Source: a virus (Duplodnaviria; Caudoviricetes). From it: 51,536 nt of DNA. Position numbers and translations under genes: made by a program. How positions within the stretch are numbered: the first letter of the stretch is position 1; each line of letters opens with the position of its first letter. Shown here in pieces: positions 2,962-51,536 of this stretch. Location of the stretch: positions 1-51,536 of the IMG/VR virus record IMGVR_UViG_3300022932_000004; one strand, given 5' to 3'. The notes beneath the pieces are model-generated. The model did not search any database, was not told the origin of the DNA, and saw only the letters and a program-made list of their open reading frames with translations.

Positions 2962-2996
2962 TAAAAAAGCCCTGCTATGAGAATAGCGGGGTTTTG
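2962..2996 (+). terminator. Rho-independent terminator-like hairpin
   Basis: aaaaaaGCCCTGCTAT-gaga-ATAGCGGGGtttt between the two lipoprotein genes. Confidence 0.65.
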
Positions 2997-3017
2997 AGTT
3001 AACTAAGAATCATAAAA

Positions 3018-3341
3018 ATGAAAAAATTAATCGCACTATCAGCAATTGTATTACTAGGTTTTACAGCTTGCAAAAAAGAAGAAGTTAAACTTAGCACTTA
3101 TGTAACTTACTCAGTGAATTGCAAATCCTGCCAGGTTACCTATAACAACGAATTTGGATTTTCCAAAACACTAAACGTAACCGGCCAATGGGATTTAGTA
3201 CTTGCTAATTACGAAGCGAAAACCGCCAAACTCGATATTATTAAAATACAAGCGTCGCCGGTTCTCGCCTCAATCTCCCTTAGTGGATATGAAGTGGTTA
3301 AGAAATTCGATTTCGGTACCTATGAATATACCGTAAACTAA
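3018..3341 (+). CDS. Lipoprotein (moron)
   Basis: Signal MKKLIALSAIVLLGFTA-CKKE; beta-rich mature domain with CxxC. Confidence 0.75.
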   Translation: MKKLIALSAIVLLGFTACKKEEVKLSTYVTYSVNCKSCQVTYNNEFGFSKTLNVTGQWDLVLANYEAKTAKLDIIKIQASPVLASISLSGYEVVKKFDFGTYEYTVN

Positions 3342-6300
3342 GGGGATATAATAATCCCATTTCTCACAGTCAGCACTACACCGCCATAGCCAGTTACAAA
3401 TCCGTTATAACCTAAAGACCCGCCCATTCTTAAATTTCCATTTGGAATGTCTATAGCGATATTTGTCCTGGCATTTTGCGCGTTAGCTAACATGCCTATG
3501 TTTACAGACCCGCTCTCTACGTTTGAAAATCTAGCTAGCACCTTTACCCCAGCGGCCGCGCTGACCACATTAGACCCTATCCCTGAAAAAGAGCCTGTAG
3601 TGTCGTTTATGAAAGCGATATAACCACCCGAAGGGTTAAGTGCAAATCTGCCTCCAATTGTATCCCCGTTAGTTCCCTGCATGTATCCGCTCGATATGCT
3701 AAATCCACCAATAATACCGCTTGTTGCGTTTATATACCCGGAAATGTTAGCGTCAGTGGCTGTTAACACCCCTGTGTTTGTCACGCTGAAAGCCCCGTTA
3801 CTGGAGGCAATCGAATTGTTGTTAATGCTAATCCCGCCTATCGTTCCGCTTTTTGCTGTCAGCACCCCCGCGCTGGTCACGCTGAAATTATTGTTACTGG
3901 AATAAATTGAGTTATTGGAAAGGATGATTCCGCCGATTGTGCCTTGGTAGAAATTAGCCGCTAAACCTTCAATGTAACCTACGTTAATTACGCTCGCCTT
4001 TAAATACACCGTATCGATCAGCGTATTTTTCAAATAGCCTCCCTGAATAACCGTAGTCCCTAATTTAGCCGTTTCAACTGTATCGAGATAGGCCAGCGAT
4101 TTTAACTGGCTTAGGCTGTAGGTCGTAGCAATTCCCTGCGCCTGAGCATACGCATAGGCTTCCGCATCCTGTTGCGCCTGATCGGTGTAGGTTAAGGAGT
4201 CAATTGTACTGGTCATATCGTACACCGTAGCGGATGCGATATATAAATTGTCCAATACTCCGCCGATGTAAAAGAAAGCAGTACTGGAAAAAGATCCCGT
4301 GGAGCCACATTTTATAGTCCCTATAAATTCCTGCCACCCGCCCGTAAAAACGTTAGATGTATTCCATTGAAACGTCCCCTGGTCACCATAAGCGTTACTG
4401 TTGAAATTTATCGTCTGTCCTATGTTTCCTGCGATTACAAAACGCACTTTAAATACCGCGTTTGGTCTTGTTTGTGTTGCAAAATAAAATCCTCCGTAGT
4501 TAGGCAACGCGGATGCGCTTGGTTGCAAATAAAGAACATAACCGGAACTATTCGGAGACCCCGATAACGCAGTTCGGTTCAAAACTACCGAACTGTCTCC
4601 GCTGTTGTTGTATACAGCTATGCCGTTATATCCTAATAAAAATTCAGGGTCTGTATATAGCATTCTACCCGCGGTATATCCTTGCCCTGCCGCGTAATTT
4701 TGAGCGGAAACTAAAACTGAATCTGCATAGCCTGTTACATCCTCAGGTGCAGGTGTCCAGTCGGTCGCTTTGTTCCCTTTTTCAATTTTAAGTTTACGAA
4801 CATTAAAATACACATAAGGCATTCCGGTAAAGTCTACGAAATTATACACATCAGAACTCCAATTAGTAACATTGACTGTGTGTATGAATCTAGTCCACAC
4901 ATCAGGCCCGTCAAGCGGTTTATAAACACCTCCTTGGTCGCAAATGTCAAAATAAGGATACCACCCAGCGCTGTTGGAAATCATTTCGCCGGATATAGTC
5001 CACTCCCCATTTCCTGTAATAACGTCTATTAACCTAACATTACCCGTTCCGCCCGATATTCCAGTCGAGTAAAAACCATCAGGTGAACCGCCTGCCGATG
5101 GGTAGCCGTTAACATCATCGTGGCTTAACGCCCCCATCTGAAAACTGTCTAAAGGGGTGGTTTTCTTATAATAATTCCTGCCTCCTACCTCTAAAGCGTC
5201 TACCTGCGCCTGTGAACCGGCTATGGTCTGCGCATTACCGCCCGTTACGTTTATCGCACCTGTCAGGTACACGTTTTGCCCGTACAGGCCATAACCAGTC
5301 AAAGCGCCGAAAGCAGGGTCAACTATCCCATCTAAACGGCCTAATCGCACTTTAGTTTTACCCGCTAAACTGGCTGAGTTAATCCCGTCCAAAACATCGA
5401 GGTAGGGCGAATTGCTATCGCTGGAGGTTAGGTATAAAAGCCCTTGCCTGTTGGTATTTGAAATATGCCCAAACCTTGCTACCGTATCCCCATATTCGGG
5501 AATACTAGAGCCCCCCTCTGCTGTTTGGGATAGCGTGAAAGCTTCGCTTTCCACTTTTATAACCCTTCTTACGTAATATTTCACACTTCGACCCGACCAC
5601 ATTTGACAACGTAATAAGTCCCCTATCACAAAAGGTACAGGTATAGTGAACCCTGCACTATCTATGTTGCAATAGTAATCCCCGTTCGTGTCTACAACTA
5701 CAGAGGTCATTTTAATCGTATCGGTAACCGCTAAAGCTCCATTAGTCCCGCTGATCTTATTTACAATCAGCTCATACACGTTAAAAGCTTTACGCACGGT
5801 TAAATTATCGAAAGTGGCTGAGCCGTCCGCCTCAATCTTAAAGCCACTACCGGTAAAACCCGAAACATAGGCAGGGGAAGATAACGACCTATGCCTAACA
5901 TCGCTGTTTACCTTTACAGGCTGGTCTAAGTAATCGGCAAACTGGTAACCGTCCCATTTATCCGAGTCCTGCGCATAATCAGCGTTATAGGCCCGTTGCG
6001 CCAAATCTGCGAAATCAGCATTGTAGGCGCGGGTAGCTAAATCCGCAGTTGCCGCGTTACCAGTAATACTGATCGCCCATGTGCCATAAGCGCCCGTACC
6101 GTTATACAGCGGATAGCGCCCGGCATGGTTGCCCCATGAGTAGGCTTCATCCCATAACGTCGGGTGATAACCTGGCGGATTAATATCTGTTCCGATTGGC
6201 ATGTACCGGCTGTCGGATTCCGGTTTGGTGTAATAGTTTGATAAATCCGTAACAATAGATCGGTTGACCCATTTTTCGCCATTAAAAACTAGACCCTGCC

Positions 6301-7014: not shown

Positions 7015-8937
7015 TTAATTCGGTGTTACAAACTTGCCGTAATGCTTCATTGAAATACTGATGTTGTCGTCACGAACCTCGACACAACTCATGTTAACTA
7101 CATTAGTTTCAGTATTCCAGCTTGCGCTTAAAGGTAGGAAATTTTTACCCGTCAGCGTCTGTATTTGGTATATCTCGCCATACGACCAATTAGAAGCATA
7201 GATTGACCCCTCAAAAACCAATGATGATTTATACCTGTTTCTTAAGACCGCATGACTATTTAAAGCGGTCAGTGTCCCTGTGTATTTAGAGTCTGTAAAA
7301 AACTTCTCAAACCCAGATTGGCTATATTCGGTCATGTAATTAGAGACGTAAAAACCATTATGCGAACTGCTGATGTTTAAAGAGTATTCCTCTTTTTTGG
7401 TGTTATTCCCTTGTGCATAAGTCGCCTCATAAACATCGTTGTTATTGTCTGTATTGATATATATGTCATCAAAAATCACTTTCCTGCCGGTAGGTATTTC
7501 AAAACTAACCAATAACGAAGGGTCTCTAGTTCTTCCAATTGGACTTGAATTTGGTAATGGAAGAATAATATTTTGCTTGGCGTTGAAGTCGATCTGAGCA
7601 ACGTCATTAAGTTTCAGTCCAGGAACAGTAATGCTAATTGAAGTGAAAGACGGTGTCCAAAATCCGTTCTCATTGAGGTAATAGTTAACATTATCCCCAC
7701 TGCAATACAACACTTGGAATTTAAAGCTAGTCGAAGCCCATACAATAAAGCCGTTTGCGTCTAATGTTGCGCCGTTAACAATGGCAAACTTAAATCCAAA
7801 ATTGATATAAGTGTAAAGCACGTCGCTGTCTATAGGTAGATTAGGATTGAACAATTGAAATCCGGTCGCGCCGTTTGGTGATGGGTTGGTAATTTGAACC
7901 GCACTTCCGGCTGAATCGCTTAAACTGCCGACAGATTCGATATAAGCCCCTGCGCTTGCATTGTATAGCCCCCAATATATCGGCACAGAGAAAGACACAA
8001 TGTCCATGTTGCCGTTAGGTAATATATTGTCTCGCTGGTCCTGCTCATAGGTGCTTACTACTGTCCTTAGGGCGGGCAACACCGTGATGATTGCATCTTC
8101 TTCAACAAAACGGTAGTTATAAGTGTTATCTCCGCCAATGGTGAACAGGTTCGGAGATAACGGTAATGTCGTCACGGAGAACCCTTCTAACGTTGCTGGT
8201 ATTTCTCTGTACACGCTAGAGCCGGTCACAATATCATTTATCCTTTCAATTTCCCATGCACCATTTGATTGATGCATTCGGCATTGTAGAGACCTTAACA
8301 TATTTTCTAAAATATAGAGACAAGATTTGTAGTTGCCTATATAATCCGTAAAACCTTCCCCTCTTGGCGCCCATTCTACAGAACCACTAAATATATCAAA
8401 CTCTCCTGGAAAAGCAGGATTTGTGACGGCGCAGGACCACCTGATCGGTAATGGCATCCCGAGGTTGTTCGTAGCAAACAGAATCTGTCTGAAATAGTTC
8501 AAAATACACCTTCCTCCTTGCAGATTGTTATGGGTGTAGTCTAATGTGTCAAGTAATTTCAACCCATCTGTTGCGGTGATATTTAACTCAAAAGGCGCGG
8601 ATTGAAAAGTTTGCTGAATCCCATCAGGGATAAGAAATCCTTTCCATTTCAATTCTGAATCTACGGAGAATTCGACCACAAAGTCGCGGTCATTTGCCTG
8701 TTGCAATTCTAAAATATCTATCGGGTTGCCTTCGGTTTGAAAAACATTAATTGAAGCTTTGCTGTTTATAATCGGCTCATAAGGGTCATCTCCGCAATCA
8801 TAGCTAATAACGCAAGCCTGACCCTCTACGCCACGCAAAGGAATAATTGCCCCGCTATAAGGAGCGACAGGCGAAATATCAACTCTGCACCTTTGATTAA
8901 AGTTATCCCGGTAGTCAACCCTGTATTTTACCGCCAT
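7015..8937 (-). CDS. Tail tip / baseplate hub protein
   Basis: 640 aa beta-rich ORF immediately downstream of the tape measure gene. Confidence 0.65.
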   Translation of the reverse strand: MAVKYRVDYRDNFNQRCRVDISPVAPYSGAIIPLRGVEGQACVISYDCGDDPYEPIINSKASINVFQTEGNPIDILELQQANDRDFVVEFSVDSELKWKGFLIPDGIQQTFQSAPFELNITATDGLKLLDTLDYTHNNLQGGRCILNYFRQILFATNNLGMPLPIRWSCAVTNPAFPGEFDIFSGSVEWAPRGEGFTDYIGNYKSCLYILENMLRSLQCRMHQSNGAWEIERINDIVTGSSVYREIPATLEGFSVTTLPLSPNLFTIGGDNTYNYRFVEEDAIITVLPALRTVVSTYEQDQRDNILPNGNMDIVSFSVPIYWGLYNASAGAYIESVGSLSDSAGSAVQITNPSPNGATGFQLFNPNLPIDSDVLYTYINFGFKFAIVNGATLDANGFIVWASTSFKFQVLYCSGDNVNYYLNENGFWTPSFTSISITVPGLKLNDVAQIDFNAKQNIILPLPNSSPIGRTRDPSLLVSFEIPTGRKVIFDDIYINTDNNNDVYEATYAQGNNTKKEEYSLNISSSHNGFYVSNYMTEYSQSGFEKFFTDSKYTGTLTALNSHAVLRNRYKSSLVFEGSIYASNWSYGEIYQIQTLTGKNFLPLSASWNTETNVVNMSCVEVRDDNISISMKHYGKFVTPN

Positions 8938-12874: not shown

Positions 12875-13185
12875 TACTTAAAGGATGCTAATAGTTTCAA
12901 TGCCTCGGCAACATTGCGTATAGGCAAAATAATATTATCGTTGTCGATCAACGGCAAGGGCATTAAGTCTTGAGGGGATACGTGTTTTTTAACCCCCATG
13001 CCGCCAAAATTAATAATGTCCGAACGAATGGTTCTCAAAAAGTCCTGCTTTTCACAACGAATTTCAAACTGCCCTGTTTCCATCATTGCATACTCCTTGA
13101 GAGTCAGCGCACGAACTTCTTTAGGTTTTAATCCCCACTTATAGGCATTGCTGATGATTTCTCCGAGCGTGTGGATTTTTTTTTT
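12874..13185 (-). CDS. C-terminal (-1 frame) part of tail assembly chaperone, gpGT-like
   Basis: Frame is open from the A10 run (13176-13185) and reads KKKIHTLGEIISNAYKWGLKPKEVRALTLKEYAMMETGQ... through to 12874. Confidence 0.8.
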   Translation of the reverse strand, partial: KKKIHTLGEIISNAYKWGLKPKEVRALTLKEYAMMETGQFEIRCEKQDFLRTIRSDIINFGGMGVKKHVSPQDLMPLPLIDNDNIILPIRNVAEALKLLASFK

Positions 13186-13553
13186 GTATTAACACGGGTC
13201 TCTTCCGGTTCGCTAGCTAATAATTTAGCGATCATTTCATCGTAGCGCTGTTGCATGGTTACCCCTTGAATTTTAGACCGCATAAAATCAACCATAATTT
13301 CATCACCAGTTCCTTGAGGCTCGTTGTCCAGCCAATTCAAAAAATATTTATAATTAAAATCAAGAGAATCGTCGTTGATTTCTGCCCCATTACGCAGTGC
13401 GGCGTAAGTAAGCTTGCTCACCATTACGGTTTCATTGCTGGCGATCTCTAGCTCCAATTGTTGCAATGTGATTCCTAATTCGTCGCACAGGTCTTCGAAT
13501 GCTCCCAGCCCCCAACATAACTGCCTAGGCTTTTCTTTGATTGTTAATTGCAT
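13128..13553 (-). CDS. Tail assembly chaperone, gpG-like
   Basis: 141 aa acidic ORF between tail tube and tape measure, with a slippery A-run near its 3' end. Confidence 0.8.
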   Translation of the reverse strand: MQLTIKEKPRQLCWGLGAFEDLCDELGITLQQLELEIASNETVMVSKLTYAALRNGAEINDDSLDFNYKYFLNWLDNEPQGTGDEIMVDFMRSKIQGVTMQQRYDEMIAKLLASEPEETRVNTKKKSTRSEKSSAMPISGD

Positions 13554-22609: not shown

Positions 22610-23095
22610 ATGAACGACGACGAGCCTTTGAGCGAAAAGATGTGGAATCCTCGCAAATCAAGTAAAAAGAATAAGCATAAAACCGAATACAGACCGCCAA
22701 AAGTAAAGAAGCGTAAACACGTGCCGTCAGAAATGGAGTTTTTAATCAGCATGCATCTTGAATTGTTGGGCGTAGAATATAAAACGGAACATAAGTTAAT
22801 CGGTCTTGTATCGCCTCATTCCGGTTCTTGGCTAAGCTGTGACTTCTACGTCGGCAAGTATCCACTTATCATTGAGTACGACGGGATGCAACACTTCTTT
22901 AGGATGTCAAATGATAGGCATTACGATGATTTAAACAAGCGTAGGCTGAACGATAAAGCGAAAGACCTGTACTGCATTCAGAATAACATTACGATGCTTA
23001 GGATTAGCGTCTACCAACGGGCGCATTACAGGGAGATTATTAACGAGTGTATAGATAAATTAGAATGCAACAAGAATTATACTAAAAGCACATAA
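22610..23095 (+). CDS. DUF559/Vsr-like PD-(D/E)xK endonuclease
   Basis: CDFYVGKYPLIIEYDGMQHF...D..KD.YC..NNITMLRI signature. Confidence 0.8.
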   Translation: MNDDEPLSEKMWNPRKSSKKNKHKTEYRPPKVKKRKHVPSEMEFLISMHLELLGVEYKTEHKLIGLVSPHSGSWLSCDFYVGKYPLIIEYDGMQHFFRMSNDRHYDDLNKRRLNDKAKDLYCIQNNITMLRISVYQRAHYREIINECIDKLECNKNYTKST

Positions 23096-23129
23096 GGATA
23101 TTTGCTTATCTTTCTTATCTTTACCACGT

Positions 23130-23233
23130 AATTGGTAGCATTCGAACTCGAACCGATTTAAAGAAATTTACAGGCGCTAACCTTAGCAAGTACCGAGTTC
23201 GAATGCGGGAAAGTTGAGGTTAACGCCTTTTTT
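23130..23233 (+). ncRNA. Structured 5' leader, kissing-loop element 1
   Basis: Loop GCATTCGAACTCG (23138-23150) is the exact reverse complement of CGAGTTCGAATGC (23194-23206), which lies in the loop of a 16-bp stem (23172-23187/23213-23228) followed by a T-run. Confidence 0.7.
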
Positions 23234-23238
23234 ATTAT

Positions 23239-24066
23239 ATGGCAACAGAAAAAATTTGTGGGATATATATTATTCACTCCCCAACAGATAGAATATATAT
23301 TGGACAGTCGAGAGATATTATGAGAAGATTTAAGTCTTATTTATGCGGAAGCTCAAAAACCAAAGGACAACCCAAGTTGCATAATTCATTTGTAAAGCAT
23401 GGGGTTGAAAATCACTTTTTTACCGTATTAGAGGAATGTGAATTGCTTCAATTGAATATCAGGGAACGTTTTTGGCAAGACGAGCATAACGCTATTGGCG
23501 ACATGGGGTTAAATTGCAGGCTAACAGAAACAGATTTAGTTCCGGCTATAACAAGTGAAGAAACGAGAAAAAAGCTTTCAGAAGCAGCAGCGAAAAGAAT
23601 GTCCATATTGCTTAACGATCCTGAATACAAAAAGACAATGCGAATTGCTTATGACAAAAGAATAGGGGTTAAATTAAGACCAAAAACAGACGAAGAAAAA
23701 GAGTCGATTAGAAAAACAGTTACCGCGTATGGCGGTTGGAAAGGCGAAAAGAACCCCTTCTATGGCAAAGACAGGAGTGGAGAAAAGAACACCATGTACG
23801 GTAAAATTCAAAGCGAAGAAGCTCGAGAAAAAATAAGGCAAAAAGCTTTAGGAAGAAAACATACTGATAGCGCAAAATCCTTAATGTCTGCTAAAAGATC
23901 GCTAGGTAATAATATACATGCGAAGCTGGTCTTTAACGAGGAAACTGGGATTTTTTATACCTCAGGAAAGGAGGCCTGGATGGCTATAGGTTATGGAGCA
24001 TACCCTACAATGAAGTCCAAATTAAACGGAGATAATCCGAATAAAACATCATATAGGTATGTATAA
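23239..24066 (+). CDS. GIY-YIG homing endonuclease with NUMOD3-like repeats
   Basis: GIYIIHSPTDRIYIGQS, RERFWQ, GLNC; GEKNPFYGK, GEKNTMYGK and GRKHTD repeats. Confidence 0.9.
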   Translation: MATEKICGIYIIHSPTDRIYIGQSRDIMRRFKSYLCGSSKTKGQPKLHNSFVKHGVENHFFTVLEECELLQLNIRERFWQDEHNAIGDMGLNCRLTETDLVPAITSEETRKKLSEAAAKRMSILLNDPEYKKTMRIAYDKRIGVKLRPKTDEEKESIRKTVTAYGGWKGEKNPFYGKDRSGEKNTMYGKIQSEEAREKIRQKALGRKHTDSAKSLMSAKRSLGNNIHAKLVFNEETGIFYTSGKEAWMAIGYGAYPTMKSKLNGDNPNKTSYRYV

Positions 24067-24101
24067 AAAAAGCCCTGACATAATACATCAGGGCTTTTTT
24101 T
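24065..24101. terminator. Bidirectional rho-independent terminator
   Basis: A-run, GCCCTGA...TCAGGGC stem, T-run, between the convergent GIY-YIG and capsid genes. Confidence 0.85.
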
Positions 24102-24122
24102 GTTTTGTTTATTTATTTCGTA

Positions 24123-48759: not shown

Positions 48760-48813
48760 TGCGATGCCTTTTTTAAACTCAAATATACTAAGATTTATGT
48801 ATATTTATATTGT

Positions 48814-48912
48814 AATTGGTAGTCTTCGAATTTAAACCGATTTAAAAACATTATTACCCTTATCTCATTGAGTAACGAGTTCGAAGACGTGAAAGGTGGG
48901 ATAAGGGTTTTT
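48814..48912 (+). ncRNA. Structured 5' leader, kissing-loop element 2
   Basis: Same AATTGGT/ACCGATT hairpin as element 1; loop GTCTTCGAATTT (48822-48833) pairs with GAGTTCGAAGAC (48877-48888) in the loop of stem 48856-48869/48895-48908, followed by a T-run. Confidence 0.7.
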
Positions 48913-48916
48913 ATTT

Positions 48917-49453
48917 ATGATAGGAATTTATAGAATAACGTCTCCGTCAAACAAGGTTTACATAGGGCAAAGCAGCAATATAGAGACAAGATTTAAAACA
49001 TATAAATACAACGCATGCAAAGGTCAGCCTAGGCTATTCAATTCTTTTAAGAAATACGGATTTGAAACCCACAAACTGGAAGTCATAGAGCGGTGTGCGA
49101 TTGACAAATTAAATATTAGAGAAAGATATTGGCAAGATTTCCATGACTCTACTAATAAAGGATTAAACTGCATGTCTGTAAAAACAGAATTGATAAATGG
49201 GAGTCATTGCAATACGACTAAATTAAAAATAAGCCAAACCAAGATGGGCGTTCCTAGCAAATTAAAAGGCAGAAAAATGCTGAAAAAAGCATATAACCCA
49301 AGGATAAACGGACGCCTTGTTCTTAATACTGAAAATGGGATATATTATTCTAGTGTAGTGCAAGCGGCGCATGCGTTTTGCTTAAACAGGACTACTTTAG
49401 ACGCTATGCTTAGAGGCAGAAGAAGGAACAAAACACAAATGAAACTAGCATAG
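48917..49453 (+). CDS. GIY-YIG homing endonuclease
   Basis: GIYRITSPSNKVYIGQS, RERYWQD, GLNC; paralog of 23239-24066. Confidence 0.9.
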   Translation: MIGIYRITSPSNKVYIGQSSNIETRFKTYKYNACKGQPRLFNSFKKYGFETHKLEVIERCAIDKLNIRERYWQDFHDSTNKGLNCMSVKTELINGSHCNTTKLKISQTKMGVPSKLKGRKMLKKAYNPRINGRLVLNTENGIYYSSVVQAAHAFCLNRTTLDAMLRGRRRNKTQMKLA

Positions 49454-49527
49454 TCTATTTTGCAACATATTCGATACATCTTAGCAACTTTAAAATATTG
49501 CGCTTACATTCGGTCAAAAACAAATTC

Positions 49528-50232
49528 ATGATAAAACATTATTCTTTTGACTTATGGCTGACACTCATAAAGTCAAACAGCGTCTTCAAGGAAGAGCGCG
49601 CCAAATATTTTCAAAAAAAGTTCAACCCATTTAGCAGGACGTTAGCCGAAGTAAAAGACATTATTCGAAATGTTGACTTGTCTTGCAATTACACAAACGA
49701 AATCGTAGGCAAGAACATCGATGCACTGGAAATGTATTGCATGGTGCTTTATAATTTAGGGGTTGATCTATCGGATATTTCGACAACTAAGATCAACGAA
49801 ATTTACGCTGAGATTGAGCAAATATTTTTTAATTACACCCCTCAAATGTACGACGAGGATACGGTTTCGACCCTATGGTGTTTACAGGAACATGGTAAAA
49901 CCCTTTCTATTTTGTCCAATACCGGATTTATCAAAGGGCATACCCTTAAAACTTTCATTCAGAAAAGCGACTTGTCCCAAATTGACTTTAGGTTTATGCT
50001 GTTTTCAGATGAACACAGGATGTCTAAGCCTAACCCTTTTTTCTTTAGCAAAATCAATAAATTAACAAATGGCAGGTTAGACAAACACGAAATCTTGCAC
50101 GTAGGGGACAATCCGAATGCAGACGGCGTAGGCGCTCAATTTGCCGGGATAGGTCATGTAATCATCAACAATATAAATCACTCACCATTTACTATTAAAG
50201 ACGTGTTAAATGAAGAACTATTCATTACATAA
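49528..50232 (+). CDS. HAD-superfamily hydrolase
   Basis: FDLWLTLI (motif I), ILSNT (II), SKP (III), HVGDN..ADG.GA (IV); start revised to ATG at 49528. Confidence 0.85.
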   Translation: MIKHYSFDLWLTLIKSNSVFKEERAKYFQKKFNPFSRTLAEVKDIIRNVDLSCNYTNEIVGKNIDALEMYCMVLYNLGVDLSDISTTKINEIYAEIEQIFFNYTPQMYDEDTVSTLWCLQEHGKTLSILSNTGFIKGHTLKTFIQKSDLSQIDFRFMLFSDEHRMSKPNPFFFSKINKLTNGRLDKHEILHVGDNPNADGVGAQFAGIGHVIINNINHSPFTIKDVLNEELFIT

Positions 50233-51025
50233 AATATACGCCGAAGACGAAATCCCGTTTTCGGCAATCGACTATTCGAAGTTTAAATTTGGCGACAAAG
50301 ATATTGCCAGGGATTTTGGTTATGCCTTAGCGGATGGGTTTATTAAAAGAAACGGATTGCGTCACTGTAAATACGAGCAGATAGTAGTGATCTCTTCTCC
50401 GTATTGTTTTATTCCTACCGCAACCTTTGCAATGAAAGATTACTTCGTTCAAAGACTCAATGAATTTCTAGTTGAAAGAAACCATAGGGTAGTTGAAGAG
50501 GCAAAGATTCATCGTACAATCACCTATAAAGAAGACTACGGCGCATTATCAGCAGAGGATAGAATGAAGTTAATCGGGAACGATGGATTTCATATTGATG
50601 CTAATTTTGTGGATAATAAGACATTGTTGTTCTTGGATGACATCATCATCACAGGAAGTCATGAGCGGGTAGTCAAAAGAATGCTGGAAGAGTACAAAAT
50701 ATCTGCTGATTGCAAATTCTTATACTTTGCTGAGCTTGCAAATAAAGACATTCATCCGAAGATCGAAAACGATTTGAATTTTGCTTTTGTGAAAGACCTG
50801 TACACCTTAGACAAGGTCATCAAGAATGAATCTTTCCTTTTCAATACACGCGTTGTTAAGTTCATGCTGAATGCTCCAGCTAGCGAGTTTAGTACATTCA
50901 TTAGATTTCAGAAAGAAGCGTTCTTACAGACGTTTATTCACCTCGCAATCGGGAACTCGTACCACACGATACCGGATTACCATTTCAATTTTACTACGCT
51001 TAAGAATTACCTCAAAACTTTTTAA
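50210..51025 (+). CDS. Type I phosphoribosyltransferase-like protein
   Basis: PRPP-binding loop LLFLDDIIITGSHE; overlaps the HAD gene, suggesting an operon. Confidence 0.8.
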   Translation: MKNYSLHKIYAEDEIPFSAIDYSKFKFGDKDIARDFGYALADGFIKRNGLRHCKYEQIVVISSPYCFIPTATFAMKDYFVQRLNEFLVERNHRVVEEAKIHRTITYKEDYGALSAEDRMKLIGNDGFHIDANFVDNKTLLFLDDIIITGSHERVVKRMLEEYKISADCKFLYFAELANKDIHPKIENDLNFAFVKDLYTLDKVIKNESFLFNTRVVKFMLNAPASEFSTFIRFQKEAFLQTFIHLAIGNSYHTIPDYHFNFTTLKNYLKTF

Positions 51026-51070
51026 GTATTAACAATGTTACATAAATAGTAAATACGTATATTTGTGTAT

Positions 51071-51203
51071 TGTTTACCTTTGGACGGGCGAACGAAAGAA
51101 TAAAACAGCTCATAATATTTTAAATGGGTTAGTAGATTTAAAGTAATACCAAAGCCCCGTCCAAAGGAATACAGGTATTATTTAAGTTTGCTAACCCATT
51201 TTT
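51071..51203 (+). ncRNA. Structured element, kissing-loop element 3 (no clear downstream gene)
   Basis: CCTTTGGACGGG (51077-51088) is the exact reverse complement of CCCGTCCAAAGG (51156-51167), in the loop of a ~28-bp stem (51122-51150/51174-51201); TATATTTG at 51058-51065. Confidence 0.65.
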
Positions 51204-51409
51204 AGTTTGGACAATTCTACTTGATATTTATTTCTGACAACGACCTAGACAAAGGCGTTTGTAAAAGTTGCACTTATATCTCTCCGGTATTTGGAACGTG
51301 TACATTTAACTATGGTTAAGAATAAAGATTGTTTTTCTAGGGGGAGTCTTTTTCTTTCCTTTCTTCTTTTCCTTATTTTCTTATGGTTGTTTTATTCCTT
51401 TTCTTCTTT

Positions 51410-51536
51410 CCTTTCTTTTAAGCTGTTTAAAACAAAACCCCACGGTTTCACAACGGCGGGGCTTCTCAAACAGAAATACATATTTTGATTGATCTGACGG
51501 ATTTACTTATTAAACGGGTTGTACTTTCTTCTGATT
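51410..51536. repeat. Terminal direct repeat, copy 2
   Basis: Identical to 1-127. Confidence 0.95.

Follow-up and report, generated by a model that had tools for sequence, protein, structure and literature searches.

Here we describe a leader RNA that directly precedes both GIY-YIG endonuclease genes of a Caudoviricetes virus, IMG/VR record IMGVR_UViG_3300022932_000004. The window analyzed is the complete virus record of 51,536 bp, and all window counts refer to the whole of it. In each copy of the leader a promoter-like box is followed by a first hairpin (H1), an A-rich spacer and a second, terminator-shaped hairpin (H2) next to the start codon, and the loops of the two hairpins are complementary to each other. 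Comparison of 13 aligned copies shows a structured RNA under selection on three helices, H1, H2 and the loop-loop helix, with this selection acting at the RNA level. The design is far wider than the 14-member family to which the two window copies belong, and it appears to be widespread in uncultured phages. We favor, with a probability of roughly 0.55, a self-contained portable cassette made up of a promoter, an attenuating leader acting in cis and a gene. As a class of gene-control cassette it appears not to have been described before.

Selection on three helices of the leader RNA

A first-pass annotation of the window had placed a promoter box, H1, a 13-nt complement between loops and a terminator-like H2 with its T-run before the first GIY-YIG gene (copy 1), and the same design before the second (copy 2); all of these sequence statements hold (Table 1). 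Its count of four copies does not, as the window contains two copies of the family and one divergent element of like design at 51056-51205. Leaders 1 and 2 have long identical blocks in common, and two conserved leader blocks each match the window exactly twice, against 0.24 and 0.03 matches expected; the two GIY-YIG proteins are 41% identical (59/144). The copy 1 13-mer occurs nowhere else in the window. Minimum free energy (MFE) folds recover both H1 and H2 and are modestly better than those of shuffled sequences (z = -2.40 with 8/200 shuffles equally good for copy 1, z = -2.16 with 6/200 for copy 2), figures in which loop-loop pairs go uncounted. The weight of evidence lies on the comparison across copies. 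The start codons of both copies are unpaired in these folds, and two candidate features, sequestration of the ATG and pairing between the A-rich spacer and the U-run, are absent from them. The idea that copies 1 and 2 carry orthogonal loop codes was also rejected, since the first loop of copy 1 could form 10 contiguous bp with the second loop of copy 2.

Table 1. Parts of the two family copies and of the divergent third element (MFE, minimum free energy; ORF, open reading frame)
Feature	Position	Strand	Details
Copy 1, -7 promoter box TATCTTTA	23116-23123	+	predicted transcript start ~23128, 2 nt before H1
Copy 1, hairpin H1	23130-23158	+	AATTGGT (23130-36) with ACCGATT (23152-58); 15-nt loop; MFE fold
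Copy 1, loop-1 kissing strand GCATTCGAACTCG	23138-23150	+	exact reverse complement of 23194-23206
Copy 1, A-rich spacer TAAAGAAATTTAC	23159-23171	+	family consensus AAAnAnATTtAT; invariant alignment columns; unpaired in MFE fold
Copy 1, hairpin H2	23172-23228	+	15 pairs and one C/A mismatch; intrinsic-terminator shape
Copy 1, H2 apical domain	23189-23212	+	AGTA (23189-92), tip stem, 10-nt loop, GAAA (23209-12)
Copy 1, tip stem CCG/CGG	23193-95 with 23206-08	+	3 bp, inside H2 loop
Copy 1, loop-2 kissing strand	23194-23206	+	within H2 apical domain
Copy 1, U-run T6	23228-23233	+	followed by ATTAT, then ATG at 23239 (5-nt gap)
Copy 1, downstream gene	23239-24066	+	GIY-YIG + NUMOD3 endonuclease, 275 amino acids; Pfam PF01541 (1.3e-07), PF07460 (4e-11)
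Copy 2, -7 box TATATTTA	48800-48807	+	predicted transcript start ~48812
Copy 2, hairpin H1	48814-48842	+	MFE fold, alignment
Copy 2, loop-1 kissing strand GTCTTCGAA	48822-48830	+	pairs with TTCGAAGAC; extended to 48833 by two G-U pairs
Copy 2, A-rich spacer TAAAAACATTATT	48843-48855	+	fold, alignment
Copy 2, hairpin H2	48856-48908	+	14 pairs; apical AGTA-ACG...CGT-GAAA; U-run (T5) 48908-12
Copy 2, loop-2 kissing strand TTCGAAGAC	48880-48888	+	9-nt complement of loop 1
Copy 2, downstream gene	48917-49453	+	GIY-YIG endonuclease, 178 amino acids; Pfam; ATG 4 nt past U-run
Third element, divergent, same design	51056-51205	+	box CGTATATTTG at 51056-65; predicted transcript start ~51070
Third element, H1	51070-75 with 51090-95	+	A-rich spacer 3' of H1
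Third element, loop-1 strand CCTTTGGACGGG	51077-51088	+	12-nt complement CCCGTCCAAAGG (51156-67) in H2 apical loop
Third element, H2	51122-51201	+	~20 pairs; T-run 51199-51203

Further members were sought with pattern scans of IMG/VR, of JGI metagenomes and of one genome collection, and most of the matches were unrelated and largely coding (6/11, all but one of at least 119, 3/9, 89/98 and 57/58 per scan). Together with the two window copies, the 12 further members (L003, L004, L007, L109, L010, L012, L161, L205, L207, L219, L222 and L365) bring the known family to 14, and the structural statistics refer to 13 aligned copies. A covariance model built from the nested helices only (R1), and blind to loop-loop pairs, scores the 12 further members at 69-118 bits. 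From 98 metagenome candidates R1 picks the same nine loci as a filter for complementary loop dinucleotides, which indicates that the filter removed no true member and that the count is unbiased; the 76 distinct non-complementary matches of that scan were also inspected.

Of the 393 pair cells in the alignment, 95.2% hold standard pairs, a share that drops to 74% in shuffles and to 27-48% in controls with slid partners; changes on both sides are found in 22 of the 31 pairs. None of 500 shuffles attains any of the structural measures. The earlier suggestion of an RNA structure kept by compensatory loop changes is borne out by the larger alignment. All seven pairs of the H1 helix have changed on both sides (91% of cells paired), and all 13 modeled pairs of H2 show compensatory changes (95.6% paired). 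In the loop-loop helix columns 14/88 and 15/87 covary (CG 7/UA 6 and CG 9/AU 4, with no unpaired case in 13), the variable dinucleotide reading CA/TG, TC/GA or CC/GG. The two hairpin loops are complementary and change together, which is the mark of a kissing loop. The outer pair of the tip stem within the H2 loop covaries as well (CG 7, GC 4, AU 1, GU 1). Among 419 cells there are 39 G-U but only 8 A-C combinations, and it follows that the sense-strand RNA is the folded and selected strand.

On either side of the tip stem stand AGTA, in all of the 13 copies but L109 (ATTA), and GAAA, in 11 of them (CAAA in L003 and L012). The loop-E/sarcin-ricin (bulged-G) motif has AGUA opposite GAA in an internal loop, and the apical domain may resemble it. 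The A-rich spacer motif is also present in divergent subfamilies, and its conserved form AAAnAnAUUUAU resembles an RNase E-type site, which we note as a lead only. A T-arm or tRNA-like reading of GTTCGAA was rejected because its flanks form no T stem and the motif is absent from other subfamilies.

A wider class of leaders and the genes behind them

Weak R1 matches and inspection of GIY-YIG loci brought to light elements whose loop sequences are very different but in which the parts are arranged as in the family, from the box and the 5' hairpin through the A-rich spacer to the terminator hairpin and the ATG. The loop pairs of these sister subfamilies include CCACTAC/GTAGTGG, GTGGTCG/CGACCAC and CCTGAGA/TCTCAGG, and the loop-loop helix measures 6-10 bp. 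A fold-based detector run on GIY-YIG loci finds complementarity of at least 6 nt in 7/35 vs. 2/35 for the same-sense control and 2.6% across loci, and it missed cases that are visible by eye. IMG/VR was then scanned with loops ignored, the requirement being the box GTATATTTG, the word AAAACATT of the spacer and a T-run, suitably spaced. This gave at least 98 distinct matches. Among the matches listed, to which the fractions and medians in the rest of this paragraph also refer, a single strong hairpin separates the spacer word from the T-run in 31. Complementarity of at least 6 nt between the promoter-proximal segment and unpaired apical sequence of this hairpin is present in 24/31 (same-sense control 1/31, cross-locus 4.7%), and complementarity of at least 7 nt in 19/31 (0/31 and 1.8%). 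Five of the seven misses hold 6-9 nt of complementarity concealed by the MFE fold, and the other two resemble chance matches. A laxer pass yields at least 25 elements, among which about 20 different loop words occur. When the two parts are folded separately, both words of an element fall within hairpins in 22/25, with medians of 5.5 bp for H1, 7.5 nt for its loop, 15 bp for H2 and 8 nt for the apical loop, and H1 starts a median of 4 nt past the box, at the predicted 5' end.

The third element of the window belongs with this wider design. R1 fails to detect it, and it has a fold of -41 kcal/mol (z = -4.28) that none of 200 shuffles equals. Its 12-mer and the complement are found nowhere else in the window, and no open reading frame (ORF) begins directly 3' of it. 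In a scan of the window for hairpin and T-run candidates, all other cases with complementarity of at least 9 nt either had weak stems (7-9 pairs) or belonged to the hairpin at 24046-24103.

Several contigs give further views of loop diversity. L507 (~3764-3880) and L463 (~3573-3690) carry a sister subfamily of the TTCGAA leaders with the loop pair GCATCTCAA/TTGAGATGC, in which the palindromic core is altered on both sides and the flanking AG..., CGAG and GCG are retained. Different loop words occur on one contig in L422, where elements at 2797-2889 (GTGGACG) and 4661-4751 (GTAGTCG) precede HNH and GIY-YIG genes less than 2 kb apart. Two elements each are likewise present in L164, at 8081-8179 (CCTGAGA) and 2212-2320 (GTCTTCGAA), and in L219, at 2970-3060 (GTGCCT) and 5930-6018 (GTCTTCGAA).

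In all 13 members with a readable flank (L219 is truncated by the contig end) a co-directional ORF begins 0-27 nt past the U-run, the distance to the start codon being 0-5 nt in most copies and 27 nt in one. The downstream gene encodes a GIY-YIG protein in seven cases (six by Pfam, L365 by a reading of the N-terminus only), an HNH protein in two (L012 by Pfam, L003 by PHROGs), a primase-like protein with DnaG-zinc-ribbon/DUF6371 matches in L207, and products without a family, from unrelated small ORFs, in three. Among 22 downstream proteins of the wider sample HNH_3 (seven) and NUMOD4 (six) are more frequent than GIY-YIG (four), with single cases of Cpn10, DUF6291, Lin1244_N and others. This bears on the proposal of the first-pass annotation that a short RNA works with the nuclease, which would make it an RNA cofactor or inhibitor specific to GIY-YIG enzymes. 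Both window GIY-YIG genes and 7/13 family members would suit such a role, but the same leader stands before HNH genes, a primase-like gene and unrelated small ORFs, HNH_3 outnumbers GIY-YIG in the wider sample, and one element of the window stands alone. A GIY-YIG-specific partner RNA is therefore disfavored, and we consider it very improbable.

The promoter suspected ahead of the leader has a counterpart throughout the family. A TAnnTT(T/A/C)(G/A) box lies 5' of H1 in 13/13 members at a spacing of 5-8 nt (16 nt in two loci), and no sigma-70-type site was found at the window leaders. The sigma-A -7 box of Flavobacterium is TAnnTTTG and occupies -12 to -5 (PMC9723704), from which the RNA should start at or just 5' of H1. 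We infer from this resemblance that the box is a Bacteroidota-type promoter and would be active as such. Neither window copy has a Shine-Dalgarno sequence between the U-run and the ATG; Bacteroidota are described as lacking Shine-Dalgarno sequences and tuning initiation via mRNA structure (PMC6847099). The closest cultured relative of the GIY-YIG protein is in Flavobacterium phage FL-1 (34.7% identity), the capsid protein is weakly similar to those of Cellulophaga phages (27.5% identity), and one family member comes from a contig that binning assigns to Pseudopedobacter. Phages carrying the leader probably infect Bacteroidota, a host assignment drawn from these likenesses. The FL-1 locus itself was rejected as a member, as it has a box and a hairpin upstream of its GIY-YIG gene and no loop-loop complementarity was seen there; an R1 match elsewhere in FL-1 falls in coding sequence.

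Portability, which the first-pass annotation had also suggested, is supported by comparison of relatives. The syntenic L315 retains the upstream gene (84% amino acid identity) and the convergent capsid gene (51%), and an 83-aa ORF stands in place of the promoter, leader and GIY-YIG gene; the leader and nuclease behave as a cassette that is present or absent among relatives. In another syntenic relative, L222, 119/123 leader positions are identical, as are 376/486 in the upstream ORF and 490/841 in the GIY-YIG ORF, a difference that speaks for selection on the leader.

The closest described kind of element is the PeSL (promoter-early stem-loop), a mobile regulatory cassette of T4-type phages. 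It is an intergenic unit of ~100 bp with a strong host-type promoter and a terminator or attenuator stem-loop, repeated in one genome directly before variable or accessory genes, and its presence differs between close relatives (PMC2839356); our leader has the same layout. PeSLs have a sigma-70 promoter with -35 and -10 sites, one variably placed stem-loop and a Shine-Dalgarno site, and a second hairpin or loop-loop pairing is not described for them (PMC2839356). The leader studied here differs in its -7 box TAnnTTTR, its two hairpins with covarying loops, its A-rich spacer and its lack of a Shine-Dalgarno site. The host phages also differ: PeSLs are from T4-type myoviruses, while the window phage has a genome of 51.5 kb and a capsid of HK97 type. 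Located in front of ORFans, the promoter and stem-loop units of the PeSL kind are reported to recombine (PMC2839356), and our leader might similarly be a DNA-level recombination linker that shuffles the genes it flanks, its hairpins being an ordinary terminator. A cassette of ~100 bp repeated before variable genes, extended stretches of identity shared by copies of the same genome, and presence or absence among relatives all agree with this. A linker does not predict compensatory changes that preserve a loop-loop helix through about 20 sequences, the excess of G-U over A-C, or stems that are wholly changed and still pair, and as a full explanation we think it quite improbable. Linker and RNA roles could coexist.

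A proposed attenuating cis leader and its alternatives

In the cassette that we favor, the host-type promoter (-7 box TAnnTTTR) would start an RNA of ~105 nt whose first bases form the 5'-terminal H1, and the helix between loop 1 and loop 2 (13 and 9 bp in the window) would lock H1 and H2 into a compact fold. The majority of transcripts would then end at the U-run, giving a small RNA with a hairpin at each end, and a minority would read through and be translated from the unpaired U/A-rich stretch beside H2. A terminating leader with minor read-through would mean that a potentially harmful nuclease is made at a low level and is insulated from neighboring transcription. Attenuation of a toxic nuclease, as the first-pass annotation had it, is plausible as a prediction. 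The loop-loop lock may give context-independent folding of the leader and resistance to RNases, or it may be the point at which a trans factor acts; this function we infer. H2 has a stable stem, G-C pairs at its base and a U-run directly behind it, 5 and 4 nt before the ATG in the two window copies, and this is the shape of an intrinsic terminator at which termination is predicted.

No match to a named RNA was found, in line with the first-pass annotation. Rfam 15 gives no match at gathering score in the window or in 10 sister-subfamily loci, all 19 matches that L001 and L002 yield with E up to 10 fall outside the leaders, and a tRNA/tmRNA search found none. DNA comparison with 50,697 phage records gives no match in near mode, and in distant mode nothing beyond chance stretches (25-29 nt, E at least 2). 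Our literature searches turned up no description of such a leader; it may be an unnamed entry among 8,495 candidate structured RNAs from IMG/VR (PMC10690425).

Individual parts of the design recall known systems. Antisense transcripts such as ColE1 RNA I/RNA II, R1 CopA/CopT and those of pT181 form loop-loop helices of ~7 nt between separate molecules, and in pT181 attenuation the outcome is terminator formation. Our leader resembles them in its Watson-Crick loop-loop helix with specificity drawn from few loop bases, but its two loops belong to a single sense RNA, and its terminator stem is independent of their pairing. Lambda pR'-tR' (6S RNA) likewise has a terminator close behind a promoter that gives a short RNA unless termination is overcome; it serves a single late operon, where the Q protein acts at a DNA site to overcome the terminator, whereas here there are many small cassettes with private loop sequences. 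Structured leaders before free-standing or intron-borne nuclease genes also keep expression low or delayed, as with T4 I-TevI and Aeh1 mobE. The T4 leader masks the ribosome-binding site in a hairpin, and a late promoter within that hairpin lifts the block; in our leader the start codon is unpaired and the hairpin is terminator-shaped. The phi29 pRNA has two complementary loops on one RNA that covary between phages, and these pair between molecules over 4 nt to form a ring on the packaging motor. It is, however, no terminator leader, and nothing ties the studied element to packaging. To our knowledge none of antisense kissing loops, riboswitches and phi29 pRNA is a promoter-proximal terminator leader.

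Several points weigh against an attenuating cis leader. Its own terminator right behind its promoter is an odd route to low expression unless the short RNA is useful itself, and a simple terminator scan does not call H2, which is due to the scan's loop limit of 3-8 nt. Both kissing strands are loop sequences and leave the H2 stem free of competition; we therefore see no classical terminator/antiterminator alternative, and regulation is putative. The third element has no directly adjoining ORF and suits a stand-alone RNA better. Finally, a crude estimate of rod length against spacer reach, among the matches listed, finds the spacer adequate in 14/22 elements and short in 8/22, and the window copies have, by our own arithmetic, a stack of ~38-43 bp against a 13-nt spacer. 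A straight coaxial complex in cis would be out of reach for such short spacers, and the pairing may therefore need a sharp bend or be intermolecular. The orphan third element and the marginal spacer length thus keep stand-alone and intermolecular readings alive.

One such reading makes the leader a gene for a small RNA (sRNA), the terminated RNA of ~105 nt being the product and the downstream gene depending on read-through. This RNA would act in trans or assemble head-to-tail through its complementary loops in the manner of phi29 pRNA. A promoter, a compact structured RNA and a terminator are the anatomy of an sRNA gene, covariation is blind to whether pairing is intra- or intermolecular, and the high diversity of loops (~20 k-mers in 25 elements among the matches listed) fits as well, as do the orphan element and the marginal spacers. 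On the other hand, 13/13 readable members have the co-directional ORF, and no target-like copies of the loop sequences were found elsewhere in the window, bar a doubtful 12-mer at 13491-13502 described below. We hold the sRNA gene to be possible, if unlikely. Less probable again, and put forward tentatively, is that the loops pair between molecules. Terminated leaders would build up and join head-to-tail, either among themselves or to nascent leaders that carry a matching address. If this were true, read-through into the nuclease gene would be under feedback from the level of leader RNA, and each cassette would have antisense-style control of dose or timing through a fast-evolving private loop code, much like plasmid incompatibility determinants.

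The first-pass annotation also spoke of a switch. A ligand- or protein-responsive version, riboswitch-like or the target of an antiterminator protein, would use the kissing fold as an aptamer or binding platform that sets read-through at H2. The unpaired nucleotides conserved in the TTCGAA family (AG after H1, AGUA and GAAA around the tip stem, the A-rich spacer) are compatible with this, as is the aptamer and terminator layout, which is like that of riboswitch leaders, and kissing loops are known in purine and lysine riboswitches. Across subfamilies, however, the loops shrink to 7-8 nt, are nearly all paired and have wholly changed sequences, which leaves no conserved pocket for a ligand. The downstream genes are nucleases and replication genes and not metabolic ones, and Rfam has no match. 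An antiterminator that shares a strand with the terminator stem is not apparent, the partner of loop 1 being the apical loop of H2 (23194-23206 in copy 1); as no fold that competes with H2 was seen, the term switch is unsupported, and a responsive element of this kind is improbable.

The attenuating cassette is of interest because homing endonuclease genes need their own expression signals and yet must be harmless at any landing site, and solutions to this beyond T4-like phages are little known. The leader would be a compact and portable solution, with an unusual covarying lock between a 5'-terminal hairpin and a terminator-shaped one, in phages of a host phylum whose transcription and translation signals depart from the textbook pattern. 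As a clean test case it could reveal how tertiary contacts bear on termination, RNA stability or initiation without Shine-Dalgarno sequences. Possible uses are as orthogonal, programmable regulatory parts for Bacteroidota and as a marker of mobile nuclease cassettes in metagenomes.

Neighboring genes and minor features

The window encodes an HK97-type capsid protein, a portal protein and a terminase. The gene directly upstream of leader 1 (22610-23095, + strand) has PHROG matches annotated as HNH/homing endonuclease (phrog_559, 3e-17; phrog_9084, 5e-15) besides a weak DUF5889 match, and by the PHROG matches two nuclease-like genes may stand in tandem at copy 1. Between the end of the copy 1 GIY-YIG gene and that of the convergent capsid gene lies a strong 16-pair hairpin with T-runs on both strands (24046-24103), which looks like a bidirectional terminator and on which weak sub-threshold Rfam sRNA and leader matches land. 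Behind the copy 2 GIY-YIG gene, on the same strand (49498-51025, +), are genes for a HAD-family hydrolase and a ComF-like phosphoribosyltransferase (PF15610, 3.6e-86), an unusual pair for a 51-kb phage that may have a role in nucleotide or DNA modification.

The 12-mer at 13491-13502, GTCTTCGAATGC, lies inside a minus-strand ORF without a Pfam family (13128-13553) and fuses the loop-1 word of copy 2 with the loop-2 word of copy 1. It reads GCATTCGAAGAC on the mRNA strand and thus has two possible pairing partners, namely loop 2 of copy 1 and loop 1 of copy 2. Ten TTCGAA sites lie outside the leaders, and this is the sole one at which both flanks match; a rough, post hoc estimate of chance is ~0.01, and its meaning is doubtful.

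A different arrangement is seen ~60 nt before related GIY-YIG starts in L241, L246, L250, L252, L259 and L266, where a plain terminator hairpin with a 6-nt loop is followed by the box TATATTTG and then the ATG, an order from terminator to promoter that is the reverse of the one in the studied leader. About 108 nt past the third element a 58-aa hydrophobic ORF starts at ~51313. A CT-rich low-complexity stretch (~51330-51420) lies just 5' of the right copy of an exact 127-bp direct terminal repeat, which occupies 1-127 and 51410-51536.

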